DNA of 64,000 nucleotides, filler included, from Globobulimina sp. (GCA_003354225.1; 10 parts of 10 records of this genome joined end to end with filler, not necessarily neighbours in it), one strand, 5' to 3'; counted from the whole stretch's first letter, positions 1 to 58,014 are shown. Numbers and translations are program-made. The notes: generated by a model not told the origin, from the sequence alone.

Positions 1-413
1 TTTCAAGTATGAGAGAGTTTGAATAACTTTTTATTTAAACGAGCTAACGGGAGAAAGGAATTGTAATTTAAATTAAAATTAATTTGGAATAATGTTATTA
101 TGTTTGAAAGAAACAACAAATTGAAAACAATAATAACATATATATATAACCCGTTTCCCGTAGGCTCAAATTTGGTGTTTTAAAGTTATTCGTTGCCGCA
201 AAGAATAAATGTAAACAAAGGAATAAATGTAAATGTAAGGAATGGAATGCGAGAACGAAAGACAAAATTTGAAAAACATATAAGATAACTATAGAAAGAG
301 GAAAAAAGAGAAAGTGTGTGTCAAGTTTTTTTGTTTTCTTTTCTTAAATTCGGAGAGTCAGTCACAACACAAAAGAATGGCAACTTTAGAGAGAAAGGAA
401 GAAGACAGAGAGA

Positions 414-1630
414 TTAAAGCCATGTATATTCATAATTTGATGCCCATGGATCAAGAACTTCGGTGGTAATATGGAAAGAAGTCAAAGGAGGGGCATTTGG
501 ACGCTCCTCAGAACCATGGATCAATTCAAAGATAAAAATGCGAAAATCATCTTCACGATAACGCATATATCGCATACATACATGGGGTAAATTCGATGGT
601 TTCCAGCCGACAAACTTCAACAATTTTGGCTGTGGAATCAACTGCATATTGGACAATGTGGCACCGCCAATACGAAAGGAATAAGCGGTGAAACGTGGAA
701 TGTCGCATTGCGGGGAATTGGAGATGATGGCAATTTTCTTTGCAATTTTGGATAAATGGGCAGTAGTTAACGAAGTACCATTGGAATATCTAAAGACATA
801 GTCATTTGGACCGGTGACATAATCATTGGATCGATGACAACGATCAAGAAACACAGAGAGCAAAAGATATGGATCAATGACAGAGCATGGACAAACTATG
901 GAGGTGCCTGGGATAAATTTGTTGCCACATTTGGAGGATCCGACAAATATGCGTTTATAAATTTTTTTGGATGATTGGTTTTTGAAGGACGCAATGGATA
1001 AAATGAAGTAATACTCCTTGCGATTTAAAGTATGGTCTTTGATTAATTGGATATGTTTGAATCGGAGGCCCTTTTTCTGACAACTCCGAGTGCCGCGGAG
1101 TAACTCGCCAGGACGGGGCATGGTGCAAAAGTACAATTGGGCCAACAGGACATGCAACAAATTATTAATATTGATGGTAAGGAGATGTTTGGCGTAGGCT
1201 TTATAATGCATTGTATAGGCAATAATTTGATTCAATTGGAATGGTAAACGCGTATCGGATTCCTCGGCATATTGTTTTCGGAGATCCTTCTTAAAGCGAC
1301 GATAGTCGCCATTGGTTTTATAGTCAGGTGAATAACCTTTCAACTCACAAATCCAAGTTAAAGTTGACTGCCACGTACAAATGGATTTGATATTGCCAGC
1401 TTGGAGCGTACGTTCGGAGATCCAATACATGGCAACCAATGGATCGAGCGGCATAAGAAAAGGATCTTCGTCCATCATAATACAATATTTGGCAAAATGT
1501 CGTAAACTTGAGACATAATGTTCCTTTGTAGATAATTCTTTATTTGAAAGAATTACTTTATTGATATGGTTTGCATTTTTCTTGTCTTTTCTGGCCATGC
1601 GATTGTTATTCAACCGCACACACATATAAT
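414..1630 (-). CDS. Tyrosine recombinase of element A (predicted exon from CAG acceptor at 1631; ATG at 1625)
   Basis: Motifs MPRPGELL (catalytic R), AYSFRIGGAT (HxxR box with Y), VGW, MRY (nucleophile Y); aligns with ORF 52059-53323. Confidence 0.92.
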
Positions 1631-2056
1631 CTGAATATGTATAAAAGTTGTATACAATTTAGAACACTCTGAAAAGTGCGGTCAGTGTTTCCACAAATCA
1701 AACAAAATGAAAGGAGAGTTGAAATAAAGGAAAAGACAAACAGTTTTTACTTGTCCTCAATTATGTATACAAAGAGGGAAAGAAAGCTGACCATAAAAAT
1801 TATTGACGGCTGGCCTTCCCGAAATTGAGAGGGTTTAAGGTCAGTTTCAGCCAATTTAGAACTGCATAACGACAGCAGAAGACAACAGGAATTTAAAAGT
1901 TACACAGAAGAGAGAGAAGTTTTTTTCAGACTTCAAAGTTTATTTTGCATCAAAGTTTTGAATGTAGGAGGAGAGAGAGAGGAGAGGAAGCAATTGCAAA
2001 TTGGGTGAAATTGAATAAGTTGTAAGGAATTTGTGTCGAAATTGGTTTGGAAACGC

Positions 2057-3861
2057 TTAGTAATCCATATAGAATGGATATGGTGAATGGTGACGTTGGC
2101 GTATTGGCAGACGAAGCCAAGTCACAAATTTCTTATATTCATCCATGTCGCGTTGATGAAATTGTGTTTTTGATTCCATAAATGAGAAATCAGAGAAATA
2201 GGACGGTGATACTTCAGTTAAATGGAGATTATATTGGGAATGCAAGCGATTGAAAGCAGGCATATCATATCGAGAGAGTAAATCAGCAAAGTCATTAAAT
2301 TCGGATGGAATCCATTCGAAGAATATATAGATTTTATATTTGATTAACAACAAACATAATTCGTAAATAAACATCATCACTGAATAGCGACTGGACCATT
2401 TTCGCGTCATTGCATAAAAGCAAATGGAATTATCAATATATAAATGGACAGATTTACCAGTTAAGACATGTTTGTATGTCTCAACCAAAGAAAGGACACA
2501 GTGAGCCTCCTTTTGATGGATCTTCCACTGTAAATGCTGTTGTCTGAATTTATATTTAGCAAACACAGAATCAACGACAAAGCCAGCGCCCATATTGCAG
2601 GCATCTGAGGCCGCATAGATATTTATGGAGGGTTTTTGGATCAAATTCATTATAGGAACAGAGCGAAGATAAAATGCATATTTTAACCAGAATTTGAGGT
2701 CATTTATGATCGAAAGCGGGAGGATTATCCAATCAGATTTACGTATGACACCATTGCGGATATTCTGATGGATATAATACATGGAATTGTAAACCAAGGC
2801 CTTCGTATTGGGGTTCAACTGACTCCAATGCATAATTTTGCCAGTCAAGGATTCCAAGGCCCGACCAGACACAACGCGATATTGGATAACCCAAGTTATG
2901 AACTTCTTTAATTGGAGGAAAGCTTTATGTGGAATCTGCGCAGTTTGATCACGAAGGTTCCATTGGACACCGTGGACAATGGATTCCTGGCAGGAATGGA
3001 CAGATTTGCCGTGAGAAATGGTGACATTTAACTCTTTGAATAAATCATCAAAGATAGCTTCCATTAATTGGCAATCTTGTTTGGTATTGGCAGCCATGGT
3101 GAAATCATCAACATGGACACGGATAGAATTTAATAAATGGGGATATTTATCGGCTAATTTGCAATTATTGACGATCCAAATAAGCAAAGTGGCAAAATAT
3201 TGACAGTTTGCAGGAGCAGACGATACGCCATAAGGCTGCTTTCTGTCTCTAAAGCGGAGGCCAAAGAGGGAATAACCGAGGAAATTGGAATCGATCTCAG
3301 GCAAACCGATTTGCCTAAAAAAGTCAGCCAAATCACGTAAGGCAAAATATTTCTTATCATGGAGCAATTTGGCATAATCCTTCAAATTTGGGAGATCTTT
3401 CATGGCACATTTTTCTTTACGAATCCATTGGTTGATAGCGGTGGTATTTATTGTATGGAAGGAGCCATTGCGAATCACTCGGACTTTCGTATAAAACCCC
3501 AAATGATCTTTCTTGGGGACACAAAAGATCATAATTACATAATGAGGATCATGGTTAATAGGTTCAATTTGGCCGTTTTCACATTCGGCAACAATTTTAT
3601 CGACGATGGCAATTGCTTCATTTATGGAATTTGCTCTGTTATAAATATATTGAGATAAATTGGACGGATTCTCCTTTTTATTGAACGTTTTCAACCAAAG
3701 CGGGAAACCGTTTTTGATAAATTGTAACTCGACTTTCCCATTTTTCTTTGTTTTCAAATATTTTTCGAAGGCGGCAATATTTAAAGAATTCTTATATTTC
3801 GAACCTTCGCTGTGTAGGGTCTGTAACCGAGCGACTTTGGTGGCGAGTTCCGGAGATATTT
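2057..3861 (-). CDS. Reverse transcriptase-RNase H of element A (predicted exon from TAG acceptor at 3862)
   Basis: RT motifs FCVPKK, RDLADFFRQI, QPYGVSSAP, HVDDF; DIRS-type RNase H ASDAC, HQKEAH, YIDNS, WIPSEFNDFADLLSR. Confidence 0.95.
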
Positions 3862-4293
3862 CTAATACAATATAACAGAGGCAATGTACAGAAAGAGAAA
3901 CGTTTCTGATAAGTTGCGGTATACACAAAGGGAGACCGAAGTTAAAGGGACAGTGAATCTGCAAAGTTTGATTCAATTTTGAAGGAGAAACTGGAGAAAA
4001 ATTGAAATTGAAAAATTAAATAAGTTAATGCGAGCAGACTTTGGCTCAACACATAAGTTTGACCAATACATATAAATACAACATAGAAAAGTCAACACAG
4101 CACAAGAAATTGTTTGTGACTGAGAAAACTATAAAATTGGTAGTTTCGAACGATTGAATGTGATAAAAATATATAAAAAAACCCATTCCCAAATAAATTG
4201 ACAGTAATAATGGTATATAATGTGACCAAAACATAAAATATAATGTGATACATATTATGAATAAAATTAATTTGAAAGAGATTAATATTGAAT

Positions 4294-5288
4294 TTAAGAT
4301 GATTTTGAGGCCAATTCACAATTACATAATGGATGCTTTTCACCTGAATGTAATACACATTCATGTTTCTTGGGACAATCATCACCTTTTCTACATTCCC
4401 CAGTGGCGTTATAGAAAGCACATTTATCGCTTTTCCTAAAATCAAAAGACGTACCTGAGTCGCGCAATAAATGTGTGATTTTCTTCGAATTTAATATCAT
4501 CGGATTTCCTTGCCAGCGTTGGGCAAAATTCTCATGATGTGGACGATCATTCGGCGTCGGATTGGACGCTCTGTCATGATTTTTATTCCTCCGATTGTTA
4601 TATGGCTTCTTTTTATCAAATTGCTTCTTTTCTTTTGGTTTCTTAGGTTTCTCGGAAAAATGCACGTCGTCGGGCTTGAACGAGGAAAAATTGTCAGATA
4701 AGAACGAGATAAACGACATATTCGAGTTGCGACAGTTCGTATTTTGGAGCCAATTTGAGGAGAATGTGGAGTATAATGATTTGTTTTGATTGATGGCAAT
4801 TTGGACGCCTTTTTGGAACCAAATCCATAAATCTTGTGGTTGAAAGGATAAATCTTTCATTAATGGATGCAATAAATTGATTGTTTTATTTAAATCAAAG
4901 CTTTTATAATCCAAATAAACGCGAATTTCACGGTATAATAATTGCTGTGTTTCTGAATTTGGTAATAATTTATTTAAACGCGAGGATAAATCAAAAATAA
5001 AATCACGCACAAAATTGAGTGTATGAATAAGATTCCACTTTGATTTGAACAGCGAGGTTAATTCCGAGGTTGGTGATAATTTATCAATGTATTTCATTGA
5101 TTTGTTCGCATATTTACAAATCCGATATGTCAATGCAATGAAGGAAAAGTTAGGTTGAACGACGCCATTAATAAATTTAATAATTTGTATGTAACATAAT
5201 ATAATGTCAGACTGCTTGATTGATGATTGCAATTTGGCGGAATTGGACGGAGCATTTAAATTTAATATTTGTTTGAGAGTGATAGGAT
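4294..5288 (-). CDS. Gag-like zinc-finger protein of element A (predicted exon from TAG acceptor at 5289)
   Basis: C-terminal CAFYNATGECRKGDDCPKKH (CCCH) followed by CVLHSGEKHPLCNC knuckle; basic/Asn-rich linker; lies upstream of RT. Confidence 0.82.
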
Positions 5289-5608
5289 CTATTAATTGGT
5301 GGTCAAATTTGTATAAAAAATTGTGTTTCTCATTGAAAAGTTGGGTTTGCATAAAAATTGTATACAAATTGAAACGTTTGGAGAGAAATAAAAACGTACA
5401 GAAAAGGGTAGTTACAGATCACAACTCCATTTTTTCGAAGTACGAAGGAGAGCAAAAAAGACAGAAAAGACATAAATTTTCGTGGTATCAATAGAAAGAA
5501 GGGGTCAATCCAAGCAAACTAAAGAAGAAAAAGAATGACTTACAATGAGATTTCAACTCAACTGAAGAAAAAGAGAAAGTATATAATAGAGAAATGTATA
5601 CAAATTAC

Positions 5609-6366
5609 CTTCTAAATCCTGAACGATATCACGGCCAGTAATTTTGCGACCATTTTCGGTTAATTTGGAATTAATTAATTTATTGATAATGGAAACCTCG
5701 GCATCAACGACCTGATTGATTGCCAAGTCAACCATCGTCAAGGTACAATCTTGTTTTTTCTTTTTATCCACACCGGGAGCACACAATAAATATTTATCCA
5801 TAGTAATAAGGCGCTGTAAGTTGTTGGTATTGGGGTTAAATTGAAAGATGGGTTTGTTGGAATACTGCTTTCTATCCAACTCACGCCGTAATTGATGGTG
5901 TTGCTGTCGTACTTGCTCAGAAATGGAGGATCTGAACGAGGCCAAATCTTCTTTGGTGAGAGCATCCGGATTTTGCTTTGTTTCCGGAGGAGCGATAAAT
6001 TCTGGAAATCGAAAACGTGAATGAACGGCAGTGGTCGAAACAGGTTTTTCCTGCTTTTCTTCGGAACGACCGATGGTGGTGACTTTGTTGCGTTTGGTGG
6101 AGCGGATTGGCGATGGAGAACGACGACGTTTGTTTCGATTTGAATGCGGGGAGTATTTATCAACTAAAATTTGAGGGATTTCTCTGTTTTTCAGGATTGT
6201 GGGGAATTTACTTAAATTGACAACATTCACTTTTTTGTCAATGACACCTCGTTTTAATAATCGATGCTGAATAGTCGGTGAAATTTGGGCAACAAATTGG
6301 TGAGCCTGCGCTGAATTTGATACTTTTGCAATGGACTCAATACTTTTAACGATGGGAGAATTGGTT
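5609..6366 (-). CDS. Leader ORF/exon of element A (open to the contig end; ends at GAAG|GT donor at 5608)
   Basis: Frame is open from 6365. The block RLITMDKYLLCAPGVDKK...IVQDLE resembles KLVTLQSHAISALTVDRS...LVTKVE in element B, and the similarity stops at the GT. Confidence 0.72.
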
Positions 6367-6466
6367 NNNNNNNNNNNNNNNNNNNNNNNNNNNNNNNNNN
6401 NNNNNNNNNNTTAATTAATTAANNNNNNNNNNNNNNNNNNNNNNNNNNNNNNNNNNNNNNNNNNNN
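6367..6466. other. Artificial contig spacer N44-TTAATTAATTAA-N44; repeated at 12831, 19295, 25756, 32217, 38676, 45125, 51571 and 58015
   Basis: Identical 100-nt cassette with stops in all frames; flanking contigs are non-increasing in length (6364, 6364, 6361, 6361, 6359, 6349, 6346, 6344). Confidence 0.99.
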
Positions 6467-7961: not shown

Positions 7962-8062
7962 AGACTTGCAATTGAAAAATACATTTTGATATGCGAATTT
8001 GCCTAATTTTATCATTGAAACAAATAATCCTTGCACATCAGCATGACTTTAACAATTTATTT

Positions 8063-8359
8063 TTAATCATCATATGAAGGTATTTGGTCGTATCTATATC
8101 CTTTTTTGCCCAGCCATGTGAAAAAAATAATTGTCGATGCATAAGACCCGGGAATAAATGTAATACCACCAAGTGTCCAAAATGGTATTGCTTCATATGT
8201 CCCCCATTCTAACCATGTTATAAATCCAGCCAAAAGAAAACAACATCCAAAGATTAACAAAAATGTTGCCATTAATGTAGTTTTAGGCGGTAATGCTTTT
8301 TTTCCAAATGTTTGTTCATATGTAACTGGCCTGAATTTACGCTTGGTTTCCCAACACAT
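8063..8359 (-). CDS. TMEM230/TMEM134-family small membrane protein
   Basis: Two TM segments, then FIPGSY...GKKGYRYDQIPSYDD, typical of the family; ATG at 8359. Confidence 0.8.
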   Translation of the reverse strand: MCWETKRKFRPVTYEQTFGKKALPPKTTLMATFLLIFGCCFLLAGFITWLEWGTYEAIPFWTLGGITFIPGSYASTIIFFTWLGKKGYRYDQIPSYDD

Positions 8360-12828: not shown

Positions 12829-13255
12829 AANNNNNNNNNNNNNNNNNNNNNNNNNNNNNNNNNNNNNNNNNNNNTTAATTAATTAANNNNNNNNNNNNNN
12901 NNNNNNNNNNNNNNNNNNNNNNNNNNNNNNATAAATAATGAAACAATTTGTATTTTGTTTTTTCTAATTACTCATGGAATTGTTTCTTATTTCTTCTCTT
13001 TTTTTTTTCTTATTTTATATTTTTTTTCTTATTTTGTATTGAATTATTAATTTTTTTTTCTTATTAATTATTGCATTGCTTCTTAGCTTAAATTTATTAC
13101 ATTTACTTATTTTGATATGATATTAAACGAATAGGTGTTTGCGATGAGATCGTCCAGCAACGGTTTCAAGTACACCAAAAAAACTTTAGTGTAGTTGACG
13201 GATCTGAGCAAGAACAACGTTTTCTAGATCTGAAGGTTAACTGCAAAACTGAGCC

Positions 13256-32930: not shown

Positions 32931-35900
32931 CTATTTAGAATACCTCAAACGTCCCGTCTTTGTCACAAAGATGACTATCGATTGCAAGATTAATTTACGG
33001 TGCTTCCATCGTATATCAGTCGGCGGAAATAATAACGTTTTTAATTCAATTTCCCATTGAGCGATTTTATAATATTCAGAGATTGTATTCATTAAAATAT
33101 TTCGCGGGGCACTATATTGCGGGCAAAATAATAAAAAGTGATCAACATCTTCTACATCACCACAAAATTGGCACCTTCCACTACAATTTGTCGTACAGCA
33201 TTGCAATTTACACCGAATATATTCAATATGCCCTTTGTTACGGCGATTTTGACGATCATAGAATGCTCGGTGTTGTCTGATATGATTATACAAATTTAGA
33301 GCAATATGACCCGAGCGTAGTTGTAGCAGAATCATCGATTGATATTGAATTAGATGCAATTCCTGTTTTGCATTGAAATGCCGTAATATGTGCCATCGCC
33401 ATTTGTATATATTATGAGAAATCAAATGGGAATCTTTCAATGTATGAATATCATTAAATTGGAGTGTTTTAGTTATCGTTTTTCGTATCAGTTTCTTGGC
33501 AGTTTTCTCAGAAACGGGTAAAGAGCGATATTTATTTTTATTATATTTATTATTATAACAATTTCGGGCTGCTTTCTTTGCAAAAAGATCTGCGATGCGA
33601 ATTCCGTGATTGGTGTCGCGTTTACATTTTTGTAAACGTATAGTTATTTTATATTTTGTATACAAATAATGAATATCGTGGTGAATGCGTTTAATATATT
33701 TTATCAAAACATAATCGTGCGTTGTTTGCAATTTTGCCACCCATAATAACGCATTTATATTGTCTGAGATTATGTGAATGAATCGATAATTTACAAGAAA
33801 GTCATCTGGCATCTTTATGATTTGCTGGATTATAGTCATAATTCCTATCAATTCCACCACGTTAATGTCAGTTGCAAAGCCAATTGATAATAGATCCTGA
33901 TGTATGGCAACAACATCATATTGTAAACAAACATGTATTTGTGAATGAATGTCAATGTCTGTATCAACACAGACATTCTGTATGTGAATATTTTCATTAT
34001 TTTGCAAATCATCCTGATATTTATTACCGTGCAAATGATTATGTATTTTATGGGTTTCTATTAACATACCAATTCCTGCACAATTTTTAAAAATAGATCC
34101 ATCGGTAAAGGCAAATAATGCATTATGTGTATTATTATTTAATTGCGTTTCTGTATACAAATTATTTATATATTCAATATATTGGCATTTGGTAATAAAG
34201 GATGGAACAAATTTCATTTTACGACCATTCTCATTCATATTAAATCTCCAGTTATAATTTACAAAATGCATTATTTTATATTGTTTTGCAACTAAAAATA
34301 TCCGAAATAATGGGTTTCTGCGGTCGTACGTCTTCATATATTGCAATTTTGCCTTTTGTGTCTTTATATGTACAGATGATAACAAATGATTATTCCAAAT
34401 AGGCATCCAATGATTGGCAATTATGTTAAACAGAATATTACGATCGTGTATATATAACAAACCAATCCAATTTTTAATCAATTTAATATCAATATAATTG
34501 TCATAATGTACGAATGGAGAGAGTATGATCAATATATCCAAAGGTATGGTATGTAACGCATTAAATAATAGCCTTATAATGCGATAATACATTTGTTTTA
34601 AAGATTTACTGTCTTTTTTAGCAGATGAACACGCAAATAATATCACTGGGTATTCGATTTTGGACAGTATCACAGACGAAAGATAATGGAATAATTTCTT
34701 TGTACGAAATTGCTGAGTATAAAAGCGAATGTTTTTTATGTCCTTAAAATCCAAATATATGCGTTGTACGATATGATTTATGTGGGTCCGTGGCGATAAA
34801 TTGTACGTTAAATAATATCCAACGTACTTTACATATGCGGCAGGTTTTGTTTTCACGACATCATTAATAGTTATTTTTGGTGTAGGTACATAATGATTTC
34901 TTTTCATGTGATTTGTATAGAAAATAATATATTTTGTTTTATTTTCAGATAGCTGCATCCCATTAAAATATAGCCAATTTACAATATTATTAATTGCATA
35001 TTGCAAATTTGTCTCAATATCATATGTAAATATCGTTTTTAGCACCGTCCAAATTACTAAGTCATCAACGTATATATATAATTTTATAGGCAAATATTGT
35101 GGAATTGCATAGTACAAAGGGTCTAAATACAACATATTTAGAAATGGACTCAATGGCCGACCCTGTGCTAATCCGATAAGCTGTAATAACCATTTTGAGC
35201 GTGTGCCATTTACAATAACTGCGCACCAACAATTAATAAATAAATCGTATATAACTCGTACATATTTTAAGGAGAAACCAAAATATCGATGCAATCGTTG
35301 TATAATAATATCATAACACACCGAGGGAAAATCTTGAGATATATCTGAGAAGATAGCATATGTTGGAATGTGTTTATTCCATCCAATATGAATATCATTT
35401 ATCATCAATGCCACGATATCCCGCGTGGATTTTCCCTTCATATTAGTAGTATTATTTGGATGTATCGAGTCACAAACAACTACAAATTCAATGCCTTTAT
35501 GTAATAGGCACAATTCATATATCTTTTTAATACATCCATTAAGAGAGATCTCTCGATAATTATTTATAAGATGAGGATCACGTTTTGGTTTAGGTATAGC
35601 TGTAATATATGTAATTTTGTGTATGCGTGGAAAGTATCCCATGTTATAGAATAAATTTAAATATGTTACCATGAAATCGATAATAAATGGATCAAGAAAC
35701 AAAAGTAATTGTACATGTATGCCGATACCGTGATTGCATTTTTTGTTTACAATTTTGAATATATAGCGAACCAAATATGCATTTATCGGACTATTCAAAG
35801 TATTTTTTGCATTATGATAATGTGCATCGTGTTGGATTAAACGTGGATTTCTCGGTTGATTTGCATATAAAATATCAGTGGAAATATTATCCATTATTGC

Positions 35901-36308
35901 CGTACATGGATAAATATCATCTTTCAATGGAATTGTTTTAAATCTAAGTCTATCCATACTGTTATAATTAGTATTTTGTATTTTGCGATGACAGAATTTG
36001 TTTGCAAATAGATTGGCTTTAATATGATTATCATGGACAATCGAATCGGTATCGTTCTCATCATTATGGATAATATATGGTATACAGTGTTTGCGTGAAC
36101 TACTTTTGCCAATTTTGCGTAGATAACGCATTGATTTATATATATTACGATGTCCTGCGATTGTTAAGTTTATATTTTGTTGCAGTTTTTTCTTTTTTGC
36201 TTTTGTACATAAACGTTTTAATGCATTTTTATGTTGTTTATATAGGGCAAATTTCGCATTTTTTGTATTATCAACACAAGACAACCAGTCACGTTTTAAC
36301 TCTCTCAA
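32931..36308 (-). CDS. LINE ORF2: RT-RNase H-zinc knuckle portion
   Basis: 1125-codon ORF with the motifs listed above; no ATG of its own, out of frame with the endonuclease fragment. Confidence 0.88.
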   Translation of the reverse strand: MRELKRDWLSCVDNTKNAKFALYKQHKNALKRLCTKAKKKKLQQNINLTIAGHRNIYKSMRYLRKIGKSSSRKHCIPYIIHNDENDTDSIVHDNHIKANLFANKFCHRKIQNTNYNSMDRLRFKTIPLKDDIYPCTAIMDNISTDILYANQPRNPRLIQHDAHYHNAKNTLNSPINAYLVRYIFKIVNKKCNHGIGIHVQLLLFLDPFIIDFMVTYLNLFYNMGYFPRIHKITYITAIPKPKRDPHLINNYREISLNGCIKKIYELCLLHKGIEFVVVCDSIHPNNTTNMKGKSTRDIVALMINDIHIGWNKHIPTYAIFSDISQDFPSVCYDIIIQRLHRYFGFSLKYVRVIYDLFINCWCAVIVNGTRSKWLLQLIGLAQGRPLSPFLNMLYLDPLYYAIPQYLPIKLYIYVDDLVIWTVLKTIFTYDIETNLQYAINNIVNWLYFNGMQLSENKTKYIIFYTNHMKRNHYVPTPKITINDVVKTKPAAYVKYVGYYLTYNLSPRTHINHIVQRIYLDFKDIKNIRFYTQQFRTKKLFHYLSSVILSKIEYPVILFACSSAKKDSKSLKQMYYRIIRLLFNALHTIPLDILIILSPFVHYDNYIDIKLIKNWIGLLYIHDRNILFNIIANHWMPIWNNHLLSSVHIKTQKAKLQYMKTYDRRNPLFRIFLVAKQYKIMHFVNYNWRFNMNENGRKMKFVPSFITKCQYIEYINNLYTETQLNNNTHNALFAFTDGSIFKNCAGIGMLIETHKIHNHLHGNKYQDDLQNNENIHIQNVCVDTDIDIHSQIHVCLQYDVVAIHQDLLSIGFATDINVVELIGIMTIIQQIIKMPDDFLVNYRFIHIISDNINALLWVAKLQTTHDYVLIKYIKRIHHDIHYLYTKYKITIRLQKCKRDTNHGIRIADLFAKKAARNCYNNKYNKNKYRSLPVSEKTAKKLIRKTITKTLQFNDIHTLKDSHLISHNIYKWRWHILRHFNAKQELHLIQYQSMILLQLRSGHIALNLYNHIRQHRAFYDRQNRRNKGHIEYIRCKLQCCTTNCSGRCQFCGDVEDVDHFLLFCPQYSAPRNILMNTISEYYKIAQWEIELKTLLFPPTDIRWKHRKLILQSIVIFVTKTGRLRYSK

Positions 36309-36782
36309 TTTATTGCTCGTCTCAATGCTTTGGATAAGAGATCAATATCAATAAAGGTACCAAGGATTTGATGTTGTTGCTGTAAATCAATATGAATGAT
36401 ATCAATATACTCTTCGTAGCCATTTTTTATGTATACAACATTTTTGAGGCATGGATCAAACATTTGAATGCCATTTTTTGTATGAAAATATCCATCGATA
36501 TCTGGCGGAGTTAAAGGTGATGCATAACGTACAGAAACCTCTTGCAATGCAACAATAACTGGCTCTAACTCGTCAACAACATCCTGTAATGTATCCAATT
36601 TAGATTTATTATATCCATTTTTGCCATTATCGATTAACAAACCATTAATATTGAAGGATAATATGGGCAGAGAAGTATCATAATAATCTCTGTTGATATA
36701 TCGCAAAATACTATGACTATCAATTATATCTGGATGCGAATGCCGACGTTTCCATTGTTTATCGCTATTCTGTGTCAATGTC
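36305..36782 (-). pseudogene. Truncated AP-endonuclease domain of LINE ORF2
   Basis: Has the NxNGL and LQE motifs but lacks the later GDxN and SDH motifs before the frame change near 36345. Confidence 0.72.
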
Positions 36783-38557: not shown

Positions 38558-38775
38558 TGTATGGTATGAAGATAATTCATCTTTTTCATCGTTTTTATCG
38601 TTTTCAGGGTCCGAATCATTATCATTTACATCGTTGTGCGACGCGTCAGCATTATCATTTGTATCATTATCTGGTNNNNNNNNNNNNNNNNNNNNNNNNN
38701 NNNNNNNNNNNNNNNNNNNTTAATTAATTAANNNNNNNNNNNNNNNNNNNNNNNNNNNNNNNNNNNNNNNNNNNN

Positions 38776-41411
38776 GCACGGTTAATTTGTTCATTAATTA
38801 TTTCATTATCAAATGGACATTGTTTATTAATCACAGCAGATGTAACATATTGAATGAATCTAGTTAGTGTGGGACAATCTATATGTTGCCAATGTTTAAC
38901 ATATTGTTTCAGCAGATTTTGCTGCATAACATTGAGAGTAATCAATAGTAAAATAAAAATAAATGTAGTATTTTCAAAGCGATGTGTATGTTTAATATTT
39001 TTTTGTTTGATAAATTGCATTCCTGTCGGTCTGTTACCGATTAATCTATGTGATGATAATATATGTGTTGGAGTGGTGATAGATTTATTGCCAGCATTAA
39101 TATTGAATTTATTGAAAAACTGTTTTCTCGAATTTGTTATCGGACATACGTTTTCGTAATGTGAATAGGCTGCATTTCTGGCAATAACAATAGGTTCAGC
39201 ATTGAACTGGGATGAATTTGCTGCTTTTGGACCCACCACTAAAGTCGGAGGAGATTGTACATAACTGTTGATAATAAGAATTGGGCGATCAAATAAGTCT
39301 GAAATAATATATGGTAACAAATCAAATAATTTGCTGTTCCAGTATCCAGAATGTCTATATTTGAAATTAGTATAATCAGAAGTATAATGACGAAGCGAGC
39401 CACCTTTAAAATCACCAATATACATAGCAATATATTGTTTTGCTGCTGGATTTGTTGGGTCAATCAAAATGTGTAATTGTTGGCGCACAATACTTCCATC
39501 TCGAGCTAATAATTGTGAATGTGCACGCGATGCAGATATTAGTAAGGAATCACCATTTTTATCAACACGATCATTGGATATTTTCATCCCAATGGAGAGG
39601 AGACTATCATTCAAATATGCAGTGTGCGAATCAGTTTCATATTTGGATATTTCAATACGAGGAAAGAATACAGGACTCGCGAAACTAATATGGGAATGAA
39701 TTCTTTTCTGTTTTAATATACAATTTGTAAAATAAATATTTTTAGAAGCTTGAATGAGTGGATCTGCATATGTTCTCAAATTGGATTGGATAAAATTGGT
39801 ATTGAGTTTTGGTGTTTTTAATGAAAACTGTAAATAAGAAATATCCCAGATCGATGGAATAGGCCTCAAAAGAGTTGGATTAATTTTATGTGTTTTCATC
39901 AAATTTTTAAATTGATTGTATGTTGGAATATGTTTCTTATTCGCACCGTAATTTAATATCCATGGAATGAATAAAGCTTTAGCGAGAATCGGAGATATAT
40001 CACTGATATGTGAAAATGTATATTTTATATGCTTATGACATCCTTCGTTGCCGCTGGTTGTTTCATACGGAGGTATATTGGATAAACAACCATTTTCAAT
40101 ATGCTTTTTAATCAAATTTTTAATCTCGGTATCAAAAGTAGTTTGTTTTCCAGAATCCGCACTAAGTAACACTGGGCCCTCTCGAATTAAAAACCCTTTC
40201 TCAGCATGTTTTTTCGTCGACCATGTTTTGCGCCAAGTGATTAAATTTGATTTGATTGTTCCAGGATCTGCAGTATTATGTTCATGACGAGCACCATTGT
40301 AATAAAATATATTACTGAGATCGTTTACAGCTGGTGAATAATACGGATGATTTTTGCGTAAACAAGATGCTATTCGCTTTATGGCATGCCAAAGATCTAA
40401 CTTTATCAAAGCAAATGGATGAACAGAGGACCAAAATACTTTGTCTGTGCAGCATCTATCTGATATAACCATTTTAACTGATTTTATTGATTCGATCGCT
40501 TCATGCATATCACGAACATTTTCCATATGGGTGGTATTGCAAAATCTGAATAATAATGGTGTCTTACTATTCATTATCATATAACAGCCGGAAGCAATAT
40601 TAACTTGTTTGCCATCGATGCTAAGTTTTATTTTGGATGCAATTTTGAACGTGTGATCGACCGTTAGTATTTCGCAATGATCCATAGTATTAAAGCAATA
40701 GTTCCAATATGGCGTTTGATTTGTAAATTCATCCGTATACAAATTGGTAAAATAATTGTTGTGAGATTGATATTGTGGAATAAATGGTGGAAATAGTTTT
40801 ATTTGATTTACCGGTGTATTATGAAACATTTGCCAATCAATATACAATGTTTCCTGCATATAATATTGTTCTTTATGTGATTTAATAAGCATATCTGATA
40901 AAGTATTAATACCCACTCCGCGAATAACTGAATTTTGTATCTTAGATAAAATATCGGTATGTATACTATTGCGTCCTGTTAAAATAAATGGAAACTTATT
41001 TCTGATTAATGATGGTAACGAATTCATGTATTGGACACTTGTGGATGTAACCGCTGCATGTCGTGAAGGGCAAGCATATGAAGCGCTAATCAATAGCAGA
41101 TTGCCATGTTCATCTATAACGGAACGAGGAGCATTTGTTTTGTATGTTGAAAAGGATTTGGTTGTGAATGTTTGAGAACATTGATTGCATGTTGGATATG
41201 ATTGAGAATATTGTTTAATGGGATCCCAAATAAATAAATGAGGTAATGTAAATTGTCTAAAATCTGGAGATGTAATAACTTGTGGACCAAATATTTGTTC
41301 TAATTGTCCGATATCCGGTGTAATAATGGCAGCTTTATATGGATTTGCTTTATGTAAACATATAACGTGGCTGATCCATAAATCATCGTATTTGTTTGTG
41401 TTAGCGTGCAT
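38776..41411 (-). CDS. Zisupton-like DDE transposase with a C-terminal OTU-like domain; 3' end cut by the contig end
   Basis: LFIWDP..CNQC..PRSVID..YAC..H..FPFILT N-domain; LTVDHTFK, ISDRCCTD, IKLDLWHAIKRI, TSGNEGCHKHI core; DKNGDSLL...DLLPYIISDLFDRPILII...SHYE OTU-like fold. Confidence 0.72.
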
Positions 41412-41442
41412 CCAACAAAATGCCAACAAAATCCCAATATTT

Positions 41443-41862
41443 GTGAATATAATATTGATGTAACTGATTATGACAATATTTGTGATTATGACAATATAAT
41501 ATTGATGTAACTGATTATGATAATATTGATGTAACAATTTATGCCAACAATTGATGTAGCAATTATTATGTAAGAATTATGTTGGAATTATGCAGAAATT
41601 ATGTTGGAATTATGCAGAAATTATGTTATCTCATTATAACTTGTCTTTTTTTTTTGTGTTGTAACTTGACTACTAACTTGACTAATTCACATATAGCATA
41701 TATATAATTTACATTTATTAAGTCAAACTTTTAGTAGTCAAGTAGTCAAGTAGTCAAGTTTGATCGTGACTTGAATATTAACTTTTAGTAGTCAAGTAGT
41801 CAAGTAGTCAAGTAGTCAACTTATTATTAACAATCATGAGTAGTCAAGTAGTCAAGTAGTCA
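41443..41862. repeat. Repeat-rich block: ATATTGATGTAACTGATTATGA x2-3, AATTATGTTGGAATTATGCAGA x2, and arrays of TAGTCAAG in both orientations
   Basis: CTTGACTA copies at 41664-41683; TAGTCAAG arrays at about 41735-41759, 41789-41819 and 41841-41862. Confidence 0.85.
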
Positions 41863-52058: not shown

Positions 52059-53323
52059 TTATTTTTTGTTTTTGATTTGTTGGTAACAAAATTTACGGTC
52101 TTCACATTTTGCCCAAGGATCAAAAACAACGCTTGTTTGTAAGAATTGTTTATTTTTTGTATTTAAATCATTATTGGGACCATGAATCATATGATGGACG
52201 AAACGACTAAGACAAATAGCATCTGGTCTAATATATCTCATGCTGATGTCTGGTAATTTTGCATCGCTCCATCCAACATATTTTAAAATAAGTCCGTGTG
52301 CAATGCCTACTTGGGACGCTCTTGTTGTTCCCCCAATACGTGAACTATAGGCAGCATATCTATGAGGTTCAACAATATAATTATTATTTGCTGCAACCAC
52401 TTCTTTGATTATTTTAGATAAATGTGTTGTTCTTACATTTTTTCCTGAAGTCCACACAAAAACATTATTGTTAGTAGACAGGATAAGGTTCTGTTGTCTT
52501 CTTGTTTTTGGTAAAGTTGATACCAAAGTTTGTCTACGTTGTAAATAAACTTTTAAGAGACGCAAAGGATTTAATAATTTGCAAGGACAGGAATGGTTGG
52601 AATTTAACGCATTGGAACAATATGAATGTCCAACATATAGAAGTTTGGAATCATTCAAGGATTTCATGGATTTGTGGGATACCACTTGAATTTGAGCAAA
52701 ATGTGTGATTGGATTGGATGGATTTGGTTTTATAAAGGATAGATGTTTAAATTTTAATCCTTGTTTTGTGATGGAATAATGGGATGATAATAATTCTGAT
52801 GGTCTAGACATGGTAAAAAAGTATAATTGTATTATTAAAACACGCAGGAGATCATCTAAAGGAATTGTAAAATAATGATTAATGACACACTTTAATTTCA
52901 ATGTATAACGGATTATGTGTTTAATTTTTAAAGGAAGTCTGGAATCAGAGGGCTTATCGAAACGTTTTATTGCTGCGGATTTGAAGGTTGTATATTCTGA
53001 ATCGGTGTTAAAGGTTGGATCAATTGCAGCTGCTTTGTGAAGCCAAAGAAGCATAGCTTGCGATTGTCGAACGCAATTTGTATTATTTGCTTGTTGTATT
53101 CTATCTGCAATCCAAAATAAAGCCAGGGATGGATTAGTTGGTAGTTTGAAAGGATTCTCTTTCAAAGTAACGCAATAAAATACCCAATTTCTTAATTGTG
53201 AAATGTATTGTATTTTAGTGCCGATACAATTTTTTAAATTATTAGTTTCTACAATGAAATTTGCTGTGTCTGGTTTCTTTTTTGAGAGCGAGTGTGTTTT
53301 AAAGAAACGTTTTTTGTACCAAG
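52059..53323 (-). CDS. Tyrosine recombinase of element B (predicted exon from TAG acceptor at 53324)
   Basis: MSRPSELL, AYSSRIGGTT, VGW, SMRY, FDPW; the frame opens just upstream of the acceptor and has no ATG until well inside the conserved region. Confidence 0.92.
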
Positions 53324-53401
53324 CTATATAAAATTAAACAAAGTTAGTCTTTTACAATGGAAACTTTGTAAAGAGAATATAAAGAATAAATAAAGGCATA
53401 G

Positions 53402-55269
53402 TTATAAAGTAAAGTTGTTTGCATAATTTGGATAAGGAGTATTTGCTCTAATTTTTAAAGGTAATTGCAAGTAATCTATGAATTTATTATATTCAATTTC
53501 GTCATAATTATGATCATGGATCTGATCATTTGATATTGAAATTTGGTTATTTAAGAATTTAAAATTTGTATAATAGATTGTTTTTGTTTTGGTATTGGAT
53601 ACATTGAGATTAAAATCATTGATTATGCTCCAAAATTTGTTTAAATCATTTCTTGATAATGCATCGGATAAACCATTGGTTGTGGAAGGAATCCAATCGA
53701 TGTAAGCAATGAATTTATATTCGAGCATCAAAAAGCATAATTCATAAATGAATAACATTAGATTGAAGGAGGAGGACCATTTATTTTTAACTGCGTAGAA
53801 ACATGATTCGTTATCAACAAATAAATGGATTTTTTTTCCTGTCAAGTAATGACGGAAAGTAAAGAGGGCTGAAAGTATAACATGGGCTTCTTTTTGGTTA
53901 ATGTGCCAATTTTTGGTATGGTTATCATTAAAATAATAAGAGGACCAATACCCAGCAATGATATAACCGCCCTGTGATTGTGATGCATCTGTTGATGCTG
54001 AAATATCTGTATTATAATTCATTATTATTTCGGACATTGGTATATTTAAAATTTGATCAGCAAAATAATACCAATATCGTAAATCATTTATGATGGAAAG
54101 AGGTAAAATAAAATCATGGCTTTTTGGAAATATACCGGATCGAATATTTTGATAAATAAATTGTAACAAATTCCAACATAATGCTTTTGTTGGTTGTTTT
54201 AATTGGGCCCAATGCATAATGGTTCCACAGAGGGATTCAAGGGCAGCACCTGAAATGACTCTATATTTCATGGTATAATGGATTAATTGTTTGATATTTT
54301 TATATTTGATTGGAGGAATACCAATGGTTTTGTTTTTTAAATCAAATAATATGCCATAAAGAACTGATTGTTGGCAAGTTTTTATAAAACCAGTTTCTTT
54401 TAAGGAAACCTGGACATTTAATTCTTTCATTAACGAATCAAATCTCCGTTCCATTTCAATACAGTCTGTTTCTTTTATGGCTCCTAATACAAAATCATCG
54501 ATATGTACTAAGGTTTTATTTCGCCAATTATCTTCAAATACTTTGTTGTCTAAAATCCAAATTAAAACTTGTGCAAAATACTGGCAATTTGCCGGGGCGG
54601 AGGATATACCGTATGGTTGTTTTCTATCTCTCCATAGTAAACCAAAAAGAGAGTAACAAATATAGTTAGAATCTTCTTCGCAAAGACCAATTTGGCGAAA
54701 GAAGTCAGATAAATCGCGAATTGCAAAAAAATTACAATCAATCAAAGTTTTAATATATTGTTTTAAATTTGGAAGGGATGGAATTTTGCATTTAATTGGA
54801 CGAATCCATTCATTTATGGAAGATGTAGATTTTGTTTTAAAGGAACCGTTTCTGATTATACGGAATTTGGTATATCTTCCTTGTCCATCTTTTTTAGGCA
54901 CACAAAATATCATAACTATATACTCAGGATTGCCGAAAAATGGTTCAATTTGTCCATCTTCAGCTTCCTTAATCATTTTATCTAAAATTGCCAATGCTTC
55001 TTCAGGCGTATTGGCAATATTTGATATTTTTGTGCAAAGATTATTGGGTTTAGTTAATGGTTGTTTCTTTGCTTTAAAATGTGTTTTTAACCATAATGGG
55101 AAACCAACCGTTATCCATTTGATATCGGATTTATATTTAGGTTTGCCTTGTAAATATTTTTCAAAGGCTGGGAGATTAAGTTGATTTACAAATTTCGATG
55201 GTTGGTTATGGAGATCCGTGAATTTTTTGAGTCTTGGTTTTAGCTCTTTTGCAAAGTTAGTGTCATATT
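53402..55269 (-). CDS. Reverse transcriptase-RNase H of element B (predicted exon from CAG acceptor at 55270)
   Basis: The frame extends upstream of the ORF call through LNLPAFEKYL...GFPLWLKT (shared with element A); RDLSDFFRQI, QPYGISSAP, HIDDF, STDAS, NQKEAH, FVDNE, SDALSR. Confidence 0.95.
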
Positions 55270-55473
55270 CTGTATATTTAACAAAAACCTCTTTTAGTTC
55301 ACAATGTAGGATCTTTTAATGTCGTCGAGAGGGACGGTGTGTTGTAGAGGGTTGGTATTAGACATAATTGCTACGAAATAGTCAAAAAAGTTCATTGGTA
55401 AATGAAATTGGCAAATTACTATTAAATTATCCCACACACACAGGTAAAGAGTAAAAATATATTAATATATAAA

Positions 55474-56618
55474 TTAAAAGGAGAATTCGCTGAATTTCTT
55501 AATATATGATTTCTGAATGTTTGGTTTCGATTTTGCAGTCTCACAATTTTTGAACGTATGATTCTGATCCGGATGGAATGCACAGATATGTTTAAATTGA
55601 TCATTATTAGTTCCACATTGGTTTCGTGGATTGGAGCATGATCCGAGAAAGAAGCGCCACATACAACAATCTGAAGGACATGGCACACCATATTCACTCA
55701 TACATTCATGGCAACATCGACGGAAATTTCTTGTTTTTTCTTTCGACGCATAATAACTGTTTTGGCTCTGATTATTGTTTTGATTTCGATTATTTTGATT
55801 GCGATTATTGGGAAATCGATTATTGCTGTTGTTTGGATATCGGTTGTTTGGATTATTATTATTCTGAGTGTTATTGTTGTTATTTCTGTTATTATTGTCA
55901 TTGGGATATCGATTATTGTTATTATTCGAATAATTGTTGTGATTGTTGCGATTATTGCGATTTCTATTTGGTTTATTACCGTGATAATTGTTCGGATATT
56001 CATTGGAATGGACAGGTTTTTGATTATCAATAAAAATGTTGAATTTTTTCCCTTTTTCAAATTCATCCATTTTGAAATCAGTGAATGTACTCAAAAGGAA
56101 TTGGATTACATTATTTCGCGCGGCAACATTATTAAATTGGTCAGTATAATAATTATTATCTATCAAGAGACTAAATGGAGCATTGTGATCTAAATAATAT
56201 TCAAAAATCTCAATGGTGGCTGCCCAGAAATTCACAACATTAAAATATGGTTTTTTACAGTATGGAGTTATTTTCTCTTTGAATAAGAAAATGCTGGCTT
56301 TACAAATTTGAATCCAATCGACCAAGATATTGTTAATGACGGGGTTTGGTTTTGCGTAATTATTTAGCGCTGACAATACGAAATCCAATGTATGTGTCCA
56401 TGCATCGAGAATGAAGAATAATGCATGTTTGGATTTAAACGATGAATATATTTCTTTTGTGGTGGAACTAATATCGGACATGTTATAATTCTCAGATAAA
56501 TGTTTAAGTGTTGAATGCAACAATTTAGGAATGCTAAAATCTTCTCTTGTTGCAAATCCCGTGAAAAATTGAATTACATCATCTCTTGCTTGTCGTTTTT
56601 GTTTGATTTGTGTGGGGA
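55474..56618 (-). CDS. Gag-like zinc-finger protein of element B (predicted exon from CAG acceptor at 56619)
   Basis: Asn/Arg-rich linker, then CMWRFFLGSCSNPRNQC...KH and CAFHPDQNHTFKNC, matching the element A fingers. Confidence 0.82.
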
Positions 56619-57080
56619 CTGTAAATTGTGTTATTTAAATTGAATTATATTGTAAACAATTTCGCAGGGTTTACTTTGGTAAAAGCAACTTAGTTGACTT
56701 AGGTAAAAGTGTTTTTATTCGCAGCTACAGGTACTTTGGTAAAAGTAGTTAGTAGGAATAAAAGTGTTTTCATAGATAATGTATACAAAAAGGCAGAATA
56801 AACATAATCGGAAAGATGAAAAACGGAATGTACACAATATAAAGCACCGTACAATGGAGATTAATCCAAGAATGAGAAAGGCGGTATCATTCTATGCGTG
56901 TACAGAGACCCAGCTGCAGTACAGTGACATATTGTGAATAGCCAACCAAAAACACCTCAAACAGTAAGCCAAAGGCAGGTAAGTTATAAAGCAAAGATAG
57001 GAAAATAGAGAGTTTTCAATTTAATTTTGTGAGCACAATAATTAAACGAGAACAATAAAAGTTATATTATAAATATAAAC

Positions 57081-58014
57081 CTTCAACTTTTGTAACTAAT
57101 TCATCATTCGAGGCGGTATTAGCTCGCTTATTTCCATTCATCTTTCTTTTCATGATATCCATCATAATTTCGTTATGCGATTGGTTTTCTTCGTTGGTGA
57201 CAGCAGCAGATAACAATAATACTGCTTCTTTGTCTTGCGATCGATCGACAGTGAGGGCTGAAATTGCATGCGATTGCAATGTAACTAATTTCGTTTTTGG
57301 TGTATCATGTCTTGAATAAGAATATCTATTTCTTGATTTGTTTAAACTATGCGATAATGTATCAATTTTCGCATTGAGATTGTTGGATAATTCTTTAAAT
57401 TGCTTATTTAACTGTGTATTATTATTGTTATTTGATGAACGAACATGTTTTTGTTCATCAACAACATCGCGGATATATGGATTTGTAGCGAAGTCAAATG
57501 GTGATTTTGGTACTGGTGATGGTCGAGGCGTGCTAAATACGTGAGATCGTGACTCCTTTTGTCGTTTTGAGCCGTGCGGATTGTCACTATGAAGGCGCGT
57601 ACGAGGCGACATTTTGTCGGCTTTGCGTTTCTTGACAAATTTGATTTGATTATAAATCACTCGTTTCTTAAAAAATGGATAGTTCCATGCTTTGACTTGA
57701 TTGCCTTTTGAATCTAAAAATCGATTTTTTTGTAATGCCAAGAATCGATCCAAGATCTTTGGCAAAAACCATCGCCACCAATACTTCATTCGTTTGCTTT
57801 GTACATAATGTCCATAAAAACATAAATCAAAAATAAAATCGAATACAGATCGATGATCTTTTGATTGCTGAATATCAATAAATCGGTCATGGAAACACAT
57901 GGAATAAACCATATTTAAAGTAATACCGGTCATTATAATATGATCTATGAATGCAACGACTGCAATACGTCGTTCTTCATTATAACGGCGCATAATTTCA
58001 TTGATTTCATGCCC
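57081..58014 (-). CDS. Leader ORF/exon of element B (open to the contig end; ends at GAAG|GT donor at 57080)
   Basis: Frame is open from 58014; the C-terminal block resembles the element A leader up to the donor. Confidence 0.72.

Follow-up and report, generated by a model that had tools for sequence, protein, structure and literature searches.

Conserved splice signals suggest one donor and three alternative acceptors in a tyrosine-recombinase retrotransposon from Globobulimina sp.

We analysed a stretch of 64,000 nucleotides (nt) of Globobulimina sp. DNA (GCA_003354225.1), here called the window, in which an earlier note, made from the sequence alone, had proposed a retrotransposon that splices one leader exon to three alternative acceptors. 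The retrotransposon, element A, lies on the minus strand at 153-6366 and contains four open reading frames (ORFs): ORF1, a gag-like ORF, a reverse transcriptase (RT)/RNase H ORF and a predicted tyrosine recombinase (YR) ORF. The window is made of ten contigs in falling size (6366 to 6344 bp, the last one truncated by the window end), which are joined by N44-TTAATTAATTAA-N44 linkers at 6367-6466, 12831-12930 and seven further positions, every ~6.4 kb, so that features flanking a linker are not neighbours. Element B (52059-58014, minus strand), a diverged second copy whose RT is 47% and whose YR is 34% identical to those of A, sits on a separate contig. The 5' ends of both elements are cut by contig ends, which for A is the N run at 6367.

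On the minus strand, the open frames of element A comprise an open-ended part of ORF1 (5553-6366), the gag-like frame (4294-5418), the RT/RNase H frame (2057-4015) and the last ORF (414-1658). The 3' part of ORF1 (5609-6366), the exon called the leader in the earlier note, ends with ..RDIVQDLE plus one base at the donor GAAG|GTAATT, whose last exon base is 5609, in phase 1. It is followed by intron 1 (5289-5608; 320 nt, GTAATT...TAATAG, phase 1), the removal of which fuses ORF1 to the gag-like exon (4294-5288, stop at 4294-4296). Spacer 2 (3862-4293, 432 nt, 63% pyrimidine) carries at its end the putative RT acceptor GTATTAG and leads into the RT/RNase H exon (2057-3861, stop at 2057-2059), and spacer 3 (1631-2056, 426 nt, 62% pyrimidine) ends in the putative YR acceptor TATTCAG directly before the YR exon (414-1630, stop at 414-416), which likewise starts in phase 1. 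For gag, RT and YR, respectively, the phase-1 YAGs have their last base at 5289, 3862 and 1631. Joining the one donor to each of them is in frame, and every product runs to the stop of the ORF concerned. Taken together, the three spacers are 62-64% pyrimidine on the sense strand, compared with 50-54% in the exons.

The comparison with element B fits the same layout. In B, the 3' part of ORF1 (57081-58014, minus strand) ends with ..DELVTKVE plus G, followed by the donor GTTTAT, and a predicted intron (56619-57080) and predicted gag (55474-56618), RT (53402-55269) and YR (52059-53323) exons come after it on the same strand, each exon following a phase-1 YAG. The two leaders align by blastp with an E value of 9e-4, and the alignment ends at ..LEG/..VEG; further downstream, the similarity of A to B starts 2-12 residues past each AG. 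The RT ORF of A has no Met before its conserved block, the first Met being ORF residue 162 and the AFEKYL block lying at residue 82, and in B the first Met is residue 114 of the RT ORF and residue 94 of the YR ORF. Between the PYP codons and the RT stop there is no GT, in A or in B. All the features described in the earlier note were confirmed in the sequence, and its coordinates were right. One of its terms needs revision: the leader exon does bear the donor, but instead of being a stand-alone leader it represents the last 252 codons of a longer ORF1, which measures 778 amino acids (aa) in one complete relative (locus L002) and 730 aa from the first Met in another (L005). This ORF1 of ~730-780 aa matched no Pfam family above the cut-off and had no Atlas match, and those of L002 and L005 are barely alike.

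In the background, 374 of 15,576 codon boundaries (2.4%) carry a phase-1 YAG, and at that rate a lone phase-1 YAG in one copy is weak evidence. The pattern goes beyond chance because a phase-1 AG occurs at the same aligned position in every relative examined and because the first junction is present in run contigs, as described below.

We compared window 1-6366 with the contigs of four runs (X1-X4; the run type is on record for none of them), X1, X2 and X4 being from one sample and X3 from another study. The X1 contigs cover all 30 bins, and hence the whole element, with no splice-like joint. In X2, X3 and X4, one contig each (depth 35.8, 11.9 and 18.3, respectively) contains the joint 5288|5609, which skips exactly the 320 nt of 5289-5608 and whose ends are CT..AC on the plus strand, equal to GT..AG on the sense strand. 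The leader-to-gag junction 5609>5288, which the earlier note had put forward as a test, is thus found in contigs of three runs from two studies and is absent from X1. The spliced contigs cover only 3996 (4034 in X4) to 5288 and 5609 to 6366, with zero depth in the intron bin, and extend ~995 nt past 6366, beyond the end of the window's contig. Over 214-3834, the depth of X2-X4 is zero except for one chance 19-nt match. We read X2-X4 as RNA-derived and X1 as DNA-like, because the former cover exons only, with zero depth in the intron and nothing of RT or YR, all of which are present in the sister run X1. Were X2-X4 DNA, the joint would be a processed copy of spliced RNA.

All three runs show the same five differences between the spliced contigs and the window copy, one inserted A and four substitutions (window 4174, 4483, 5742, 6032 and 6080), which means that expression comes from a near-identical sister copy and not from this contig. 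The contigs end at 3996 in both X2 and X3 and at 4034 in X4; from position 3996 it is ~298 nt back to the gag stop and 134 nt on to the RT acceptor, and this common contig end in two studies is a weak hint that the transcript has its 3' end nearby. The missing cover of RT and YR fits a low abundance of their transcripts, without being evidence for it. At the other end of the element, contigs of X1, X2 and X3 that cover window 104-152 run into unlike sequence at 152. The 3' boundary of element A thus probably lies near 153, which makes the 3' non-coding end at 153-413 (minus strand) provisional at its 152/153 limit, and window 1-152 is probably also present in another, expressed context.

We assigned the element to a class by its domain content and gene order. 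The RT ORFs matched the Pfam families RVT_1 (E 3.6e-8 in A and in B) and RT_RNaseH (E 3.1e-5 in A and 9.6e-7 in B), and their Pfam families were limited to RVT_1 and RNase H-like ones; by our reading of the alignment, ~90-100 residues follow the RNase H block. The last ORF matched no Pfam family. An AlphaFold2 model of the last ORF of A, built on an alignment of ten relatives (predicted local distance difference test score, pLDDT, 76), gave 38 matches in the PDB at E<=1e-3, the best being Cre recombinase (E 5.4e-8, probability 1.0), followed by XerH, lambda integrase and Flp. The YR profile gave a weak match to an integrase (E 0.026), and the conserved columns of the YR alignment include an R (..SRPxEL), ..Y/H-S-x-R-I-G-G.. 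and a C-terminal ..RY... Given RVT_1 and RT_RNaseH in one ORF and the Cre-like model of the last ORF, element A is a tyrosine-recombinase retrotransposon with a recombinase of predicted Cre-like fold. Protease, DDE integrase and methyltransferase domains were not detected by Pfam, nor was rve or RVP in any ORF scanned.

The gene order is gag-like, RT/RNase H, YR, and YR comes after RT in 15 of the 15 elements that hold both; a VIPER-like order (gag, YR, RT/RNase H) was accordingly set aside. A DIRS1-like or PAT-like assignment was rejected as well, with no methyltransferase family matched and no long inverted repeats found in A, L002, L005 or L006 (the termini of A being incomplete). By its gene order and domain content, the element is structurally Ngaro-like. 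The 8133-bp contig of L002 closes on itself, positions 1-119 being identical to 8015-8133 with a unit of 8014 bp, which is compatible with split direct repeats, either as a collapsed A-internal-B cycle or as a tandem array. The gag-like exon of A encodes a basic linker between a helical N-terminal half and a C-terminal Cys/His knuckle, whose residues C290, C299, H309, C311, H319 and C324 are invariant in 7 relatives. It showed a weak zf-CCCH match (E 0.0035) below the Pfam cut-off, and its AlphaFold2 model (pLDDT 48.9) was too poor for a fold search.

Conservation in other family copies was a further check suggested in the earlier note. A search with the RT protein returned 46 relatives of 31-59% identity, none of them above 651 aa, and a scan of metagenome contigs with the alignment of these relatives located 20 loci on host contigs of 26-62% GC, several of which hold most of an element; no relative was found in viral contigs. 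Within this set of 20 loci plus A and B, diverged elements keep the donor, the acceptors and the phase. A phase-1 GT directly follows a conserved motif at the end of ORF1, ..D-[ILV]-[VL]-x-x-[LV]-[EQ] plus one base, in all six elements that reach this region (A, B, L002, L005, L006 and L012), the remainder of ORF1 being hardly alignable among them. On the acceptor side, a phase-1 AG stands at the edge of N-terminal homology in 37 of 37 sites located by script (16 RT, 15 YR and 6 gag), with a pyrimidine at -3 (YAG) in 35. These 37 sites omit the RT of L020, which aligns weakly, and the YR of L007, where two AGs spaced three codons apart are candidates; inspection by eye gave phase-1 YAGs for these two loci as well. 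Two of the loci, L009 and L010, are near-identical and should count as one.

When the proteins are begun at the junction codon, the YRs are flush in 15 of 15 cases, and there are two groups of RTs with acceptors 8 codons apart, one of 7 that are flush and one of 9 that agree to within one residue. The residue at the junction varies (E, V, A, G or D), and its codon always starts with G after a codon ending in A, which indicates a constraint on the nucleotides and not on the protein. No in-frame ATG occurs between the preceding stop and the junction codon in 34 of the 37 sites, the first ATG is at least 89 codons downstream in 12 of 16 RTs, and in the YR of L016 and the gag of L006 a stop codon abuts the junction codon. 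Where the ORF1 donor and the three acceptors are all available (A, B, L002 and L005), the joins between them are in frame in 12 of 12 cases.

The relatives also appear to contain short introns. In L006 and L012, ORF1 is joined to the exon bearing the motif by short canonical introns of 68 nt (L006:1941-2008) and 64 nt (L012:1098-1161), and a third short intron within the coding region lies at L012:2020-2080 (61 nt). All are in phase 1 except that of L006 (phase 0), and one of the three has GTATGT...ACTAAC...CAG; the family accordingly tolerates several introns. Just past the ORF1 donor, the intron is conserved at the nucleotide level between the diverged L006 (2091-2200) and L012 (1261-1370), and this stretch holds a second GTGAGT resembling a 5' splice site, 30 nt (L006) and 33 nt (L012) downstream of the donor; in element A, CATTGTAAGTC is found 65 nt past the donor. 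The conserved stretch could be a U1-binding or packaging element kept only by the unspliced RNA. Another recurrent sequence is the palindrome GTATAC, all five copies of which in A lie in the three spacers (minus-strand starts at 5601, 5365, 3924, 1770 and 1655) with none in the exons; ~2 copies would be expected over the whole contig. Near-identical modules of ~20 nt surround GTATAC 25 nt upstream of the YR acceptor and 77 nt upstream of the gag acceptor of A, and in L006 it occurs 10-12 nt before the gag and RT acceptors, so that it may be a shared splicing signal.

The remaining question concerns the donor that serves RT and YR. At the C-terminus, gag and RT remain conserved as far as their stop codons. 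In aligned columns of either protein, the only phase-1 GTs that are kept belong to Cys or Gly codons, the last gag Cys being TGC in L002 and L016, and if an exon stopped at the T of a Cys codon, its joining to 8 of the 16 RT acceptors would produce TAA or TAG. The YR acceptor of B and L002, equipped with a pyrimidine tract and a CTAAC-like branch site, lies 78-87 nt past the RT stop, and the RT tail has no usable donor. A donor at the gag end was considered as a family feature and rejected, as no such GT is conserved family-wide. The earlier note had argued against a serially spliced polyprotein, and the family bears this out: no donor conserved across it ends gag or RT. Since the ORF1 donor is the sole donor conserved family-wide, we infer that RT and YR are reached from it; this rests on the conserved position, phase and sequence of their acceptors and on the lack of any alternative conserved donor. 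It is highly probable that expression of RT and YR runs through their conserved acceptors and draws on some coding exon upstream, and probable, with somewhat less assurance, that this exon is ORF1 and that the Ngaro-like element uses one donor with three alternative acceptors. The scheme of one donor and three acceptors in the earlier note thus stands as observed for the gag junction and as conserved in donor, acceptors and phase for RT and YR, whose junctions themselves are deduced; its "one donor" perhaps does not extend to every lineage, as L012 illustrates.

A number of points weigh against splicing of RT and YR from the ORF1 donor. The RNA origin of X2-X4 is deduced from their cover, not from a recorded run type, and assembled contigs lose rare forms. 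No junction to 3861 or 1630 was seen, but the X2-X4 contigs cover neither RT nor YR, and these runs are therefore silent on both junctions. The phase is no guide either: all introns but one are in phase 1, so it cannot pair a given donor with a given acceptor. Queries of protein databases with the leader and the RT for longer proteins, and with an RT profile, retrieved no fusion of ORF1 to RT or YR; the profile was matched against 1.84 billion representatives, and of its 15,578 matches the best 150 were all of at most 761 aa, and long N-terminal extensions among the profile matches occurred only in the distant P0157 and P0162, which have a Met of their own. Finally, gag of L012 contains a further phase-1 donor, CAAG|GTTAAG, ahead of the 61-nt intron, and A and L005 have G|GTGAT in common, within a Gly codon that lies ~30 codons upstream of the gag stop, so that lineage-specific gag-to-RT splices are possible on sequence grounds.

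These last sites lead to the strongest alternative, in which the ORF1 donor would be used for gag only and RT and YR would be reached by serial splicing from lineage-specific donors in gag or RT, giving fusions of the Gag-RT type. Besides the donor in L012 and the site common to A and L005, it can draw on CAG|GTGAAA, present in A alone, and on the near-uniform phase 1, which would keep the frame from any donor. However, no such GT is kept across the family, and the B-like elements have none apart from those in Cys codons and in one column of mixed residues, which would be expected by chance ~0.06 times (our rough figure, based on an assumed codon frequency). Splicing from the A/L005 site would moreover remove the conserved Cys/His knuckle, and the short distance from RT stop to YR acceptor in B and L002, with an RT tail free of usable donors, weighs against serial splicing into YR there. 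We therefore regard this alternative as unlikely.

The transcript-like contigs cover just ORF1 and gag, and they derive from a copy that differs from that in the window by four bases and the inserted A. Both facts would suit a situation in which only an ORF1-gag unit of the family is expressed here, for example as a domesticated host gene, with RT and YR as silent relics. Yet the RT and YR ORFs of A are uninterrupted over 601 and 405 codons and are intact too in B, L002 and others, and the acceptor signals are conserved family-wide; the expression of RT by active copies would also be left unexplained. Such a restriction to ORF1-gag seems to us very improbable.

We give slightly less credence still to a separate 5' exon, either a spliced leader of the host, attached in trans, or a short initial exon transcribed from an internal promoter, that would supply RT and YR with AUG plus one base. 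An acceptor directly before each ORF does resemble the resolution of a polycistron by trans-splicing, and the RT and YR regions fall outside the cover of the spliced contigs. Against it, the gag acceptor is demonstrably joined in cis to ORF1, and the elements' own matching phase-1 donor is present in 6 of 6. Phase 1 is kept across contigs of 26-62% GC, probably from many hosts, all of which would need an AUG+1 exon, and the RT-YR spacers of 78-87 nt in B-like elements are too small for a promoter plus an exon. Finally, that the conserved AGs are not splice sites and that unspliced RNA is translated into RT and YR, whether by non-AUG initiation, by reinitiation or from an internal entry site, as the lack of junction reads at the RT and YR sites might suggest, is hardly credible, for it leaves unexplained the invariant A|G across a codon boundary with a variable residue as well as the -3 pyrimidine and the pyrimidine-rich, branch-site-like upstream sequence, and the gag site of the same anatomy is a proven acceptor.

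Under splicing from the ORF1 donor to each of the three acceptors, expression could proceed as follows. A single transcript would begin upstream of ORF1, which ends in a phase-1 5' splice site, and the gag, RT and YR blocks would each open with a phase-1 3' splice site and close with their own stop, none being followed by a donor. The unspliced RNA would encode ORF1 alone, as stops come 1-18 codons after the donor, and would also be the template for copying, because genomic copies keep every spacer. Splicing to the first acceptor, the step observed in X2-X4, combined with ending of the transcript shortly after gag, would yield an abundant ORF1-gag mRNA. Rarer splicing to the RT or YR acceptor would remove gag, or gag and RT, along with the gag-proximal 3' end, and would produce ORF1-RT and ORF1-YR proteins at a low level. 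One may speculate that the products co-assemble through their common N-terminus.

A wider proposal, which we put forward tentatively, is that these elements form an ancient clade of YR retroelements in many marine eukaryotes, with splicing all in phase 1, one ORF1 donor and three stop-terminated cassettes in place of frameshifting or a polyprotein. Gag, RT and recombinase might then be fused to the same large ORF1 module, which would gather them on the RNA; the choice of acceptor, coupled to a 3' end after gag, might control dosage, and copying signals in the first intron might ensure that only unspliced RNA is copied.

Comparable splicing from one donor is familiar elsewhere. In foamy-virus Pol mRNAs, retroviral Env mRNAs and pararetroviruses (CaMV and RTBV, the cauliflower mosaic and rice tungro bacilliform viruses), one major 5' donor close to the start of the genome RNA is joined to internal acceptors, through which downstream genes are expressed, and the unspliced RNA is the genome, and the leader of retroviruses and pararetroviruses is mostly non-coding or a short ORF. 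Unlike in these viruses, the donor here closes a long ORF in frame, and every product would carry ORF1. The adenovirus major late unit has one promoter and one leader donor serving several acceptors, each with its own 3' end, and a distal splice removes the proximal 3' ends. The service of several alternative acceptors by one donor is the likeness to the present element; adenovirus is a DNA virus with a non-coding leader and no reverse transcription.

Among retrotransposons, the order of gag-like, RT/RNase H and YR, the predicted Cre-like recombinase and the lack of detected protease, DDE integrase and methyltransferase agree with Ngaro-like elements of the order DIRS. Two surveys of DIRS/Ngaro elements describe ORFs that are frameshifted or overlapping and do not contain the word "intron" (PMC3783388, PMC6681497). 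In contrast to Ngaro and DIRS elements as described, the present family has a large extra ORF1 and, between all ORFs, intron-like spacers with conserved splice signals. The full-text literature searched yielded no account of spliced DIRS, Ngaro, PAT or VIPER elements, though an earlier mention may exist. A closer parallel in one respect is "shGAG" of plant Ty1/Copia elements, in which splicing linked to early termination yields an abundant subgenomic mRNA for the structural protein, with the unspliced RNA being full length (PMC5580714). The spliced, early-ended mRNA for a structural protein is the likeness. However, the shGAG splice drops the protease region and Pol is made as a polyprotein from full-length RNA (PMC5580714), whereas here RT and YR lack a start codon and have acceptors of their own.

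Elsewhere in the window, other contigs carry an unrelated 1136-aa ORF with RVT_1 (E 1.4e-14) at 32934-36341 and a 950-aa ORF with DUF6729 at 38727-41576, both on the minus strand, and also kinesin, ORC/Cdc6-like AAA and TPR genes. Genes of this kind on neighbouring contigs indicate that the assembly is eukaryotic and repeat-rich.

Little is understood of the way in which YR retrotransposons express their RT and recombinase and proportion them to the structural protein, and the RT ORF of this clade lacks any start codon. If true, the conserved design of one donor and several acceptors would bring a splicing programme like those of retroviruses and adenovirus to a third class of retroelements. 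It would also explain the headless RT proteins that ORF callers return from metagenomes (the best 150 of 15,578 matches being of at most 761 aa), and the annotation of such elements requires spliced gene models. The design provides exact junctions for testing, and the elements themselves are a natural case of introns retained within a retroelement.

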